Origin: Octopus sinensis
Lineage: Eukaryota
NCBI RefSeq assembly: GCF_006345805.1
Contig: NC_043001.1
Span: forward strand, 103,168,001-103,232,000
Direction: 5' to 3'
Length of the DNA: 64,000 bases
A program made the translations under genes and the position numbers. The notes under the pieces are model-generated. The model made no database searches, had not been told where the DNA came from, and saw only the letters and a program-made list of their open reading frames with translations. Shown one piece after another: positions 48,001-55,652 of the stretch; position 1 is the first letter of the stretch, and every line of letters begins with the position of its first letter.

Positions 48001-49244
48001 AAAAATGGCCTTATATTATAATATGAGGCCTTTATGATTTCCCCTGTTGTAAGAGAAAAAGACGTGTAAAAACTCTTTAAAAATATTAGAAAAATAGCTT
48101 CAAACAAGAATTGAACTTCGTGTGTTCGAAGATAAGACTGGGCAAATCACAAGAATAAAAACCAATGACTTTGAAAAATGTTATGATGATGTTAATGATT
48201 TCTTTTAAAATTATTTGCATCGTAATTAATTCTCTTTTGAAATATAAAATAGTGGCCTAGATTATTCGAACTCAGGATAAATTAATTGATTACACTTCCG
48301 CCGATTAAAATTATTTACCTTTGATTGGTCAGAGTTACCATTCCATTGATGAAATAATCCAGGAGTCATATCTCAACCGGAAACACAGTATTTGTCAAAT
48401 GATCCCTAGAATATTATCAGATATAGTATCGCTATCCCGGATACTAAAGAGATCAATACAATGGTTATTAAATAACAACAAACCATTTGATTCGTTCGTT
48501 CCACCATCTGCAGGTGTGGTATTATTTACCAAGTAACTACATGCGATTCAGATTCCTGAATTTGATATCGGGACTGGTGACCTTTAAACCTAAACAGGAA
48601 TTGACTGCCAGCTGGATGTTATCACTATGGGGATGGCTATATGAAGCATCAGCGTACTCTCTAAGAATATTCCTGTGTTGCAGAGAGCAAACAGGTTTGG
48701 CTGAGTGGCTGGGATGTAATTTCAGATGTCCATGAAATGTTCAGAAGTTGGACTGATTAAAGCTAATTAAACATTAATTTCGAAAAATGCTCTGCTAGCC
48801 CCAGTTATTTAAGATTGGTAGATACATGAATATTTGAATAAATCAATAAATATATACATGAATACATGTACACACACACACACACACACATGCATACATG
48901 TGTGTGTATAGAGAATACTGAATAAATATCTAGCGAGTAACTTGGTTAGATAAATAGATATGTGGATTGATAAATGGAGAGCTAGAAAGATAAACAGACA
49001 ATATATATATATATATATAGTTGGAATTTACAAAAAACAAAACAAAATAAAAGACGAAGGCGGGTGTGTAAACAACAAACAGACGTATGAGTTTAACGCG
49101 CGGGAAATAAGAAAGTCTTTTACATTTCGATATATATATATATTATATATATATATATATATATATATACATACCGGAGTAAACGCATTAATGTGAAACA
49201 AGGTGGAAAAAAGAGTACTCAAATACCAGTGGTAGAGTAATATG

Positions 49245-49358
49245 CTTTATTTAAAGCAGCAGAAAATTCAACAAAACCTGTTACTCTGAGTTTCACGAAC
49301 GGGAATGTGAAACTCAGAGTAACAGGTTTCGTTGAATTTTCTGCTGCTTTAAATAAAG
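49245..49358. repeat. Near-perfect hairpin (52-bp arms, 10-nt loop) between (TA)n tracts
   Basis: 49245-49296 versus 49307-49358 with one mismatch; contains the 3' half of a hammerhead, GAAACTCAGAGTA. Confidence 0.9.
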
Positions 49359-49463
49359 TATATATATATATATATATAATATATATATATATATATATAT
49401 AATATTATATATATATATATATATATATATATATATATATATATATATATATATATATATATA

Positions 49464-50426
49464 TAAGTAACGAAAAATTTTTTTAAAAATGCAGAATGCT
49501 CAAATGAAAGAAAATTTTAATAAAATGAGAAATTGATAAAATATATAAATATATATTTATTCAACCGGCTTTCGTCATTGTATGACTTGTCAAGAATATT
49601 TATGTTTTAAGAAGTTTTTTTTAAAATTAGAAAGGGGAAAAAAAGAAGAAAATTGCATTGTTTTTTGTAAAAGAATAATGATAAAAATGTACAAAAATTA
49701 AAAAATAAGTTCTCCGATACATTGTGAATTCGTTGTGTATCTTGAGTTTTATGGTTGTTTACGAGAAAATTACCTTGAGGTGTTAAGATCCAAAGGGATT
49801 AACAGCATGTGTTGTGTTGTGTTGTTAAATTCAGCATGTTTGCAGGACAGGAAGTAGTAGTAATTGTGGTCCTGGTTCTTCAGTCCCTGTGTTGTGAGTA
49901 AGGGGAGACAACTCTTTTGAGTTCTTCAATAAAACCCAAATTATAAAACTATCATTTTAGCTTCATTTGCATTATCTTTTTTATATAATTGCTTGTTCAC
50001 AGGAACTGAAGAACCAGGACCACAATTACTACTACTTCCTGTCCTGCAAACATGCTGAATTTAACAACACAACACAACACATGCTCTTAATCCCTTTGGA
50101 TCTTAACACCTCAAGGTAATTTTCTCGTAAACAACCATAAAACTCAAGATACACAACGAATTCACAATGTATCGGAGAACTTATTTTTTAATTTTTGTAC
50201 ATTTTTATCATTATTCTTTTACAAAAAACAATGCAATTTTCTTCTTTTTTTCCCCTTTCTAATTTAAAAAAAAAACTTCTTAAAACATAAATATTCTTGA
50301 CAAGTCATACAATGACGAAAACCGGTTGAATAAATATATATTATATATTTTATCAATTTCTCATTTTATTAAAATTTTCTTTCATTTGAGCATTCTGCAT
50401 TTAAAAAAAAATTTTTTCCTTACTTA
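49464..50426. repeat. Large inverted repeat (~428-bp arms, 106-bp spacer), Penelope-like terminal repeat
   Basis: 49464-49891 is nearly the reverse complement of 49998-50426; (TA)n on both outer sides; hammerhead variant in each arm. Confidence 0.9.
50292..50332 (+). ncRNA. Minimal hammerhead variant with U3-A8 core (mirror copy at 49558-49598, minus strand)
   Basis: UAUUC-UUGACAA-GUCAU-aca-AUGAC-GAAA-ACCGGUU-GAAUA. Confidence 0.6.
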
Positions 50427-53911: not shown

Positions 53912-54298
53912 TCTACAATATAAATTGGACATGGGCGATCGTTGTATTCTTTCTTATCTTGAGGTTCACAGCCAAACGGCCGAGTGGATTCACGTGAAAA
54001 ATGACACACATGTGGAGACAGGGGCATACATTGGAATGCAGTTTGTATTTTTTCCTAGCCCCCATACTTACCGAGAAAATCGATGAAATCATTTTCTAAT
54101 GGAATTCCCCTCTTTCTTCTGCCATTAAAACAACCAGTTGCTTAGAAGCTGTTTTCTGATGGGGTGGGGGTCAGGAAATTTTCATACAGCTGGAGGCTCC
54201 AATCGAAACAGGGGACCCGAAATGATAAGGTTGAGAAACGCTCTTATAACCGAAAATGAACACAGCCACGTTCGGGTGAAACCGGGCTTAGCTGCTAG
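53912..54298 (+). mobile_element. Non-autonomous Helitron
   Basis: A|TCTACAATATAAA start; degenerate hairpin TTCGG-GTGAAA-CCGGG then CTAG|T. Confidence 0.6.
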
Positions 54299-54666
54299 TA
54301 TAATATAATAAATATGCGTATAACATATACACTGATCAATGAAAGCCTATAAAATGTAAAGCGGTAAAAAGATTAAAAAAAATTCTTATAAAAAAATTCG
54401 AAAGCGGTAGCCATAAGGAAACAAATCAACTTTAAAATTACAAAATATACGAAAATACATCCATCGTATCCGAAGTCAGAAATTTCGAAGAATGCCTATA
54501 ACAAACAGTTCAATAGTTCAGATGTATGTATGTATGTATGTATGTATATGTATGTATGTATGTATGTATGTATGTATGTATGTATGTATGTATGTATGTG
54601 TGCATATACATGTACACGTGTATATACGCGTATATGGTATATCTACAATATATATATATATATATA

Positions 54667-55652
54667 ACATTATATAAAAGGGCTTAGTAAAATAAATTAC
54701 TTTGCCGCATACTGAACTCATTAGAAATAGTAGCTAAAAAACTTTTTTAAAACTATTTCTAATACTTAAAGAAAACCTCTCTCATATAGTGTTTGCTCAA
54801 TTCAACTCACGAAAGTATGGGGGTAAAGACATTAAAAAATCAAATGCAAAGGTTATTTGAGAACGTACGTTTCAAGATTAGTCAACTCGACATTTCTATC
54901 ATCAGCTCAGAACTCCTTGGTTTGGATTTGAAAACACTGAAAGTGGGAGCATACCCTTTCGGCTTCTTATCGCTTCTGAAGATCTGCTCGAAACTAACAG
55001 TGCCAGCAAACTCAAATATGCAAGCGAAGAATTTCTGCTCTCCCCTTTCCACCAGCGTGGGTTAAAATCAGTAAACACTATGCTTTTTCGGTAAAATCCG
55101 AGGCATTAAATAGAGAGAGATGAATTATAATTTCAACAATTGAGGGTAAAATTAATTAATTATTAATCAATTTCACCAAGTATTCAGTATGCAAAGGGAC
55201 CATTTGAGTTTGCTGGCACTGTTAGTTTCGAGCAGATCTTCAGAAGCGATAAGAAGCCGAAAGGGTATGCTCCCACTTTCAGTGTTTTCAAATCCAAACC
55301 AAGGAGTTCTGAGCTGATGATAGAAATGTCGTGTTGACTAATCTTGAAACGTACGTTCTCAAATAACCTTTGCATTTGATTTTTTTATGTCTTTACCCCC
55401 ATACTTTCGTGAGTTGAATTGAGCAAACACTATATGAGAGAGGTTTTCTTTAAGTATTAGAAATAGTTTTAAAAAAGTTTTTTTAGCTACTATTTCTAAT
55501 GAGTTCAGTATGCGGCAAAGTAATTTATTTTACTAAGCCCTTTTATATAATGTAATAATTTGAATTCGCCTTAAATGGTCCCTTTGCATACTGAATACTT
55601 GGTGAAATTGATTAATAATTAATTAATTTTACCCTCAATTGTTGAAATTATA
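54667..55652. mobile_element. Double inverted-repeat element carrying a hammerhead (retrozyme/Penelope-like) between (TA)n tracts
   Basis: A (54667-55017) inverts A' (55202-55553); B (55126-55205) inverts B' (55573-55652). Confidence 0.85.
55310..55361 (+). ncRNA. Type-I hammerhead motif (mirror copy at 54858-54909, minus strand)
   Basis: UGAG-CUGAUGA-uAGA..GUC..GAC..UCUu-GAAAC-GUAC-GUU-CUCA; palindromic stem III; U-U closing pair on stem II. Confidence 0.65.

Follow-up and report, generated by a model that had tools for sequence, protein, structure and literature searches.

The stretch of DNA analysed here, referred to throughout as the window, comprises 64,000 nucleotides of Octopus sinensis (contig NC_043001.1, positions 103,168,001 to 103,232,000 of the forward strand). 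Within it, positions 49000-55652 contain six short modules that carry complete folds or possible halves of type I hammerhead ribozymes and lie mostly between (TA)n tracts. The stretch is most likely a graveyard of insertions made by the enzymes of Penelope-like elements (PLEs), together with a non-autonomous passenger, module D. This passenger is a closed unit of 559 nt without an open reading frame (ORF), belonging to a large repeat family, and is not a truncated PLE. The other five modules (M0, M1, A, M2 and M3) form a nest of 2.3 kb at 49001-51322, and module D was inserted separately, at 54663-55652. A preliminary description, made from the letters of the window alone, had proposed (TA)n tracts as the shared target of several ribozyme-bearing families, an inference that is largely published biology, and had overlooked the closed unit of module D.

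Module D and its repeat family

Module D is flanked by its own TA tracts (54648-54666 on the left and 55649-55698 on the right) and consists of two copies placed head-to-head, with a few bases of microhomology at the junction. The minus-strand copy (54663-55208) holds 546 nt of the 559-nt unit in the permuted order B-X-A, and the plus-strand copy (55202-55652) holds 451 nt in the order A-B and extends about 96 nt further 3'. The copies are 99.1% identical over 352 nt, compared with only about one third of the aligned contigs of the family that are at least 99% alike, which suggests a single source for both arms. The minus copy continues past the point at which the plus copy ends; because this is the usual 3' end, its template would have been multimeric or circular, and the copying of 546 of the 559 nt across the end point of other copies would require an RNA template of that kind.

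Contigs from four runs were aligned to the minus copy at 80% likeness, giving 10590, 1948, 621 and 247 aligned contigs and coverage of all 29 bins in each run. Such contigs are short at repeats and do not reveal tandem arrays, expression, circles, strand or RNA ends. Twenty public runs from four organisms contain all or part of the window, and none of these runs is recorded as RNA. The B-X junction was bridged by two of the 31 records listed when 31 letters were demanded. One bridging contig of 630 nt, diverged by about 17% from the window, wraps from the unit end to the unit start, and end-to-start joints with linkers of 15-31 letters occur in three of the four runs. The share of contigs continuing into unlike sequence is 0-0.01, and (AT)n stands directly at the B end in at least two contigs of the family.

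The hammerhead of module D, HH4 (55310-55361, plus strand), is a type I fold with U.U at 10.1-11.1, an internal loop in stem II and a palindromic stem III, CGUACG, and is mirrored at 54858-54909 on the minus strand with one change in loop 2. The palindrome is predicted to form an 8-bp homoduplex (-9.8 kcal/mol) and no hairpin. Of the 40 substitution rows listed (40 of 63), three lie within the hammerhead, in loop 2 or the internal loop in every case, and the 41 core and stem positions carry no substitution among those 40 (P 0.04). In one loose contig end, made up of four records of one run, position 7 is C and position 10.1 is A, so that the U.U becomes A-U.

The 559-nt unit as a whole has a GC content of 34%, its longest stop-free pieces encode 55-70 aa, and it gave no credible Pfam match and no tRNA. 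It folds far better than its shuffles (z of -6.1, reached by 0 of 100 shuffles; -5.5 as a circle, with 12 shuffles; about -5.5 to -7 overall), compared with z of -2.6 to +1.6 for ten control stretches, and the hammerhead is not formed in the predicted fold. By analogy with published elements, module D would work like a non-LTR (long terminal repeat) retrozyme with an insertion geometry of the PLE type. Its HH4 would probably cut as a dimer through the palindromic stem III and release monomers from multimeric RNA, as in non-LTR retrozymes, with one hammerhead in each closed RNA unit. It is possible, although with less than even confidence, that module D represents an abundant retrozyme with a circular RNA form and a hammerhead of the PLE type, that a TA-targeting PLE mobilises it in trans, and that the insertion in the window is the direct footprint of such an event.

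How retrozymes are reverse transcribed and inserted in animals is an open question on which module D bears. Its large family of closed units, which lack an ORF and have ends of the PLE type in a defined target, amounts to many natural records of insertion, and the start points, lengths and junctions of its copies can be counted as a test of rolling reverse transcription on a circle. Were module D indeed a circle mobilised by a PLE, retrozyme mobilisation would be tied to PLE enzymes by insertion geometry, beyond co-occurrence and homology.

Hammerhead modules and TA tracts of the nest

From its left end, the nest reads (TA)n (49001-49019), M0 (49020-49129, minus strand), (TA)n (49130-49169), M1 (49170-49358), a (TA)n tract of 107 nt (49359-49465), module A (49466-50470), (TA)n (50471-50533), M2 (50534-50834, minus strand), a short TA-like run, a spacer, (TATC)n(TA)n, and M3 (51008-51322, plus strand). 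The 3' end of M3 is cut off by an unrelated element at 51323-51978, which has 141-nt inverted arms, 92% alike, around (GATA)n and presumably resembles the non-autonomous Helitron-type repeats. Most modules are bounded by (TA)n as had been claimed, the exception being M3, which is bounded on one side only. Positions 49000-55652 had been described as a single array of 6.6 kb, a view not supported in that form, as module D lies 3.3 kb beyond the nest with unrelated sequence in between. Four modules, M0, M1, A and M2, alternate with TA tracts across 49001-50860, and the fourth hammerhead belongs to an independent insertion.

Seven of the nine TA tracts in the region adjoin a module, in agreement with (TA)n being a common target of several unrelated families of Penelope or retrozyme type. 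The distance between a full fold and a TA tract is 83-314 nt, and 20% of the non-TA part of the window lies within 400 nt of such a tract. The modules are mutually unrelated: comparison of eight segments gave only a 15-nt match between M1 and M3 (E 0.002), and module segments matched nothing elsewhere in the window. In M1, A and D, two copies stand head-to-head with their 3' ends toward TA, and one copy of each pair bears a tail (about 75, 46 and 96 nt, respectively). An inverted arm or palindrome stands at the 5' junction in five of the six modules, arm lengths are unequal and range from 7 to >400 nt, and the hammerheads lie about 40-290 nt from the 3' ends of their modules. No module holds an ORF, all being short end fragments.

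Module A consists of arms at 49466-50003 (minus strand) and 49998-50424 (plus strand) with about ten differences in 428 columns, microhomology of a few bases at the junction and a tail of the plus copy that reaches 50470. Its fold HH1 (50292-50332, plus strand) is of type I with the U3-A8 core variant, 5 bp in stem I, 4-5 bp in stem II with G10.1-C11.1, and a stem III of CCGG plus one extra base; a mirror copy at 49558-49598 on the minus strand differs by one stem III base. M2 has a T-rich 3' part toward its TA tract, and its 5' end carries a 14-nt palindrome centred at 50827 followed by the short TA-like run. Its type I fold HH2 (50653-50754) lies on the minus strand, which the preliminary description had left unstated, the strand of the other three folds being plus. 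HH2 is probably decayed, with 3 bp in stem I, a long stem II containing G.U and A.C, and the palindromic stem III CGUACG. At its TA boundary M3 has a 24-nt palindrome with its centre at 51015, and it carries the type I fold HH3 (51054-51127, plus strand), which has a canonical core, 6-7 bp in stem I, 4 bp in stem II and, in stem III, an insert of five bases that pairs weakly with itself.

The order of the type I core (CUGANGA or U3-A8, GAAA, UH and stems I-III) is present in HH2, HH3 and HH4, and in HH1 by way of U3-A8. The stem III register, in which 15.2-16.2 pair beside A15.1-U16.1, is regular in HH2 and HH4; HH3 would have a G.U-type pair there, and HH1 would fit only with one base bulged out or with G as the cleavage-site base. 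The earlier observation of four sequence-unrelated folds, two of them with mirror copies, was upheld by the descriptor matches, as was that of short self-complementary stem III sequences, CCGG in HH1 with its one extra base and CGUACG in HH2 and HH4; two of the four folds are of irregular or decayed form. Modules A, M2 and M3, and the stretch at 52022-52330, fold no better than their shuffles (z -1.1 to +0.5).

The half motifs claimed alongside these folds differ in strength. That of M1, a 3' half of a Hydra-type hammerhead at 49307-49326 (plus strand) mirrored on the minus strand, is credible as a genuine motif: its stem III equals that of Penelope-3_HM, and it is one base from Hydra-2_aMil, with which it shares the cleavage base and stem I arm. 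M1 itself is made of two head-to-head arms of about 57 nt, each cut within hammerhead stem II, and the tail belongs to its minus copy. M0 is a 110-nt T-rich end fragment that starts with what may be the 3' half of a minimal hammerhead (49110-49130), a weak case with about nine informative bases, too short to exclude chance. The site at 52247-52282 was not accepted, having no intact GAAA and lying 642 nt from a TA tract. The motifs of M0 and 52247-52282 may be chance matches. The surrounding stretch 52022-52330 is T-rich, lies between (CA)n and (CATA)n, and has a 5' hammerhead core and a hairpin without intact GAAA; it is possibly the remains of an ancient PLE end. When 3' halves were sought on their own, 22 sites came up across the window, mostly far from TA, so that half motifs are weak evidence.

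Motifs were scored with a strict type I descriptor and with a relaxed one that permits the U3-A8 core, one mismatch in four stem II pairs and an optional bulge. In the whole window the strict descriptor found only two folds, 51054-51127 (plus strand) and 50653-50754 (minus strand). At 49000-55652 the relaxed descriptor gave six matches, which are the four folds and the two mirror copies, whereas 300 block-wise dinucleotide shuffles averaged 0.16 matches, with 2 as the highest count and none reaching four. Stricter settings gave three and five matches against shuffle means of 0.03 and 0.08. The contrast is optimistic, because the descriptor was relaxed after the motifs were known and the region had been picked in the preliminary description. 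The remaining 57 kb gave one poor match, at 40938-41023 inside a purine repeat, and under uniform placement the clustering of four folds inside 5.1 of 64 kb has P ~0.002.

The order of events can be proposed from the published behaviour of PLEs. A GIY-YIG nuclease would cut within (TA)n, and the PLE reverse transcriptase would copy the element RNA from its 3' end, usually stopping early. A second, inverted copy would then be joined head-to-head, leaving both 3' ends facing TA and one of them with a tail. As PLE hammerheads sit near the 3' end, short remnants would be rich in them. The TA left on both sides of each insertion would offer fresh targets, and because each insertion renews the target in this way, a nest such as that of M0, M1, A, M2 and M3 could build up; module D would be a separate insertion, that of the non-autonomous passenger. 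The nest is then ordinary, TA microsatellites collecting the 3' ends of hammerhead-bearing PLEs, and since they do so, local clusters of ribozymes are explained without a function.

The window as a whole is repeat-rich, animal-type DNA with a GC content of 26-51%, abundant microsatellites, many copies of a dispersed repeat of about 220 nt and decayed mobile-element frames; the tRNA search found none. At 58922-59179, ahead of a TA-rich block at 59223-60763, a 142-nt unit is repeated 1.8 times in tandem, with TA tracts on either side; no hammerhead was found there by the descriptor used, and the unit could be a ribozyme-less passenger of the Penelope type. At 6480-7300, a (TA)n tract of 233 nt has unique sequence on both sides with strand-biased ends toward the tract, resembling a PLE module, and no hammerhead match. 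By eye, helicase-like frames of 563 and 181 aa at 3539-5729 (minus strand) look like a PIF1-type Helitron remnant, a frame at 31983-33694 (plus strand) like a reverse transcriptase of the LINE (long interspersed nuclear element) type, and 34442-38452 (plus strand) like a nearly complete gag-pol LTR retrotransposon. A decayed reverse transcriptase fragment lies at 61442-62031 (plus strand; Pfam RVT_1, E 0.004, below the cut-off).

Relatives and generic folds were also sought elsewhere. An exact-word search for relatives of the modules found nothing in metagenome contigs or genome contigs. Generic hammerhead patterns gave 21, 120 and 56 loci in viral contigs; no related element was present among the first 21, and of the remaining 176 five passed the stem test. 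Plausible type I folds, unrelated to the window, were seen in the viral contigs at L166, L180, L196, L151 and L168.

Weighing the alternatives

Several observations weigh against the reading of these modules as insertions made by PLE enzymes. No PLE reading frame linked to any module was found in Pfam, homologue or representative searches with the candidate frame end of module A, and membership in the PLEs is unproven because of this. Six words from the modules are absent from the supplement of PMC8557442, where line breaks might hide a match. Rfam returned no hammerhead family among 107 matches in the window at E<=1, although such a match is a proxy that does not define the ribozyme, and short motifs of variant type may be missed. 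Between GAAA and the cleavage triplet, HH1 and HH3 carry five bases where a clean CCGG palindrome would have four, and no natural example of this extra-base stem III variant appeared among the 176 viral loci. The stem III inserts (6 nt in HH2 and HH4, 5 nt in HH1 and HH3) differ from the 7-8 nt of the published Hydra table, and the tails of about 46, 75 and 96 nt exceed the 30-40 nt published (PMC8557442). Two of the nine TA tracts inside the region lack a module, and the 24 tracts outside it, 13 of them in one TA-rich block of 1.5 kb, have no credible fold nearby. Only one of the six families, that of module D, was compared with other copies. On the covariation in stems that had been put forward as a check, that family shows no core or stem variant among the rows listed and a single change of U.U to A-U in a loose end, and no two-sided compensatory change is among the records listed; 23 of the 63 substitution rows lie outside the 40 from which conservation was judged, as most loose ends and pieces lie outside the listing.

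A candidate for a PLE reading frame is in module A, where by eye a possible decayed GIY-YIG frame end crosses stops and a frameshift at 49786-50004 (minus strand). Its ending was likened by eye to the W..L.T..P.GLN-type ending of Naiad proteins in PMC8557442. This frame end is a weak lead: Pfam gave nothing and the homologue search was empty at E<=10. Its single representative match, P0004, proved to be a bacterial Y_Y_Y protein whose score was inflated by repeats, and BLASTP gave no alignment to it.

It is unlikely that module D is merely the 3' end of an autonomous PLE and that its B-X-A order arose when the template was switched once at this locus. PLEs normally show partial tandems of truncated copies (PMC8557442, PMC3846280), B stops at the same base in either copy and shares a 3-base microhomology with the start of X, the summed contig depth is greater over B and the end of A than over X, and short repeat contigs, which break at forks, could hide a continuation into an ORF. 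However, the B-X junction is crossed by many contigs in all four runs, the diverged 630-nt contig both spans B-X and wraps from end to start, hardly any contigs continue into unlike sequence, and the entire unit folds as one structure. Circular permutation within the family also tells against the distinctly improbable reading of all the modules as TA-targeting fold-back elements or miniature inverted-repeat transposable elements (MITEs) with incidental hammerhead-like motifs, as it is not explained by terminal inverted repeats. Long inverted arms and TA flanks are typical of Tc1/mariner-type MITEs. Both are seen here, and the unrelated inverted-repeat element at 51323-51978 is close by, but the arms of the modules are unequal and of widely varying length, tails are one-sided, internal junctions show microhomology or palindromes, and equal terminal inverted repeats with fixed ends are present in no module. 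Furthermore, conservation in family D falls on the positions of the hammerhead.

It is very improbable that the folds are chance matches to a loose descriptor in AT-rich DNA. The later tuning of the descriptor, the empty Rfam result, the 22 scattered 3'-half sites and the 3-bp stem I of HH2 speak for chance, but none of the 300 shuffles reached four matches, the variants listed for the hammerhead of family D fall in loops, and the U3-A8 variant, the U.U and the palindromic stem III are published traits of PLE hammerheads. A host-kept ribozyme cassette that processes a read-through transcript is extremely improbable, with motif density alone in its favour; orientations are mixed, truncation falls inside the ribozymes of M0 and M1, HH2 shows signs of decay, the sequence between the nest and module D is unrelated, and no gene was found in the stretch. 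Nothing points to a function for the array.

Comparison with known systems

Insertion by PLE enzymes, the reading preferred here, agrees in many respects with the Hydra-clade PLEs, which bear hammerheads, target (TA)n and include Hydra-1_Obim of Octopus bimaculoides (Craig et al. 2021, PMC8557442). In PLE copies generally, 5' truncation, an inverted 5' copy, a tail of 30-40 bp and partial tandems are normal (PMC8557442). Shared with the Hydra clade are the (TA)n target, a hammerhead near the 3' end, U.U or G.U beside the core, a near-palindromic stem III and inverted, truncated, tailed copies; U.U at 10.1-11.1 occurs in 14 of 25 Hydra-clade families as counted from File S2 of that paper. In the Hydra-clade table the half motif of M1 is matched nearly letter for letter and HH4 and HH2 in part, whilst HH1 and HH3 are not matched, and the hammerhead listed there for Hydra-1_oBim differs from every motif in the window. 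The families described here may already be catalogued in Repbase or in an octopus repeat library.

Hammerheads of metazoan PLEs more widely have a short stem I, a palindromic stem III, the U3-A8 variant and low activity except as dimers, and occur as opposite-strand pairs 100-700 bp apart and as numerous unrelated families within one genome (Cervera and de la Pena 2014, PMC4209133). The layout of HH4 is that of the D. willistoni PLE hammerhead, in which U.U is found together with a stem II base of AGA/UCU and a palindromic stem III of 6 nt; tandem 450-bp hammerhead repeats are also mentioned for that fly, and HH1 shares the U3-A8 variant (PMC4209133). A stem III insert of five bases, as in HH1 and HH3, is absent from the section of that paper's alignment that was compared, and cephalopods are unnamed in the one supplement file searched. 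Literature searches, with subscription journals mostly beyond reach, found PMC8557442 only on PLE hammerheads in octopus or retrozymes of cephalopods, no report of a retrozyme in cephalopods and nothing on a non-autonomous Penelope with a hammerhead. The Octopus vulgaris genome has recently active Penelope families and many unclassified short interspersed nuclear elements (SINEs), and the main text of that report lacks the word ribozyme (PMC13282606).

The geometry of the insertions is that of endonuclease-bearing PLEs, with truncated, inverted copies and a one-sided tail in M1, A and D, palindromes in M2 and M3, and insertion into (TA)n. The endonuclease-bearing Penelope of Adineta vaga has head-to-head inverted pseudo-LTRs (pLTRs), palindromes at junctions, an optional tail and AT-rich simple targets, and its pLTR is sufficient for mobilisation in trans (PMC3846280). 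In contrast to the present modules, the A. vaga copies carry full ORFs and target duplications, and any duplications here would be unreadable within TA.

Module D resembles the non-LTR retrozymes in being short, non-coding and low in GC, with one type I hammerhead, a head-to-tail junction, strong self-pairing and a large family. Its 559 nt exceed the 170-400 nt of the circles described previously (Cervera and de la Pena 2020, PMC7229834) and fall within the 51-972 bp range reported more recently (Li, Clavereau and Pollet 2026, 10.64898/2026.07.22.740005). It differs from those retrozymes in its PLE-type hammerhead and in forming a head-to-head pair in (TA)n and no tandem array. PLEs have been named as candidates for retrozyme mobilisation (PMC7229834), and their role is backed by co-occurrence and pLTR homology, with the mechanism called unresolved in that work (10.64898/2026.07.22.740005).

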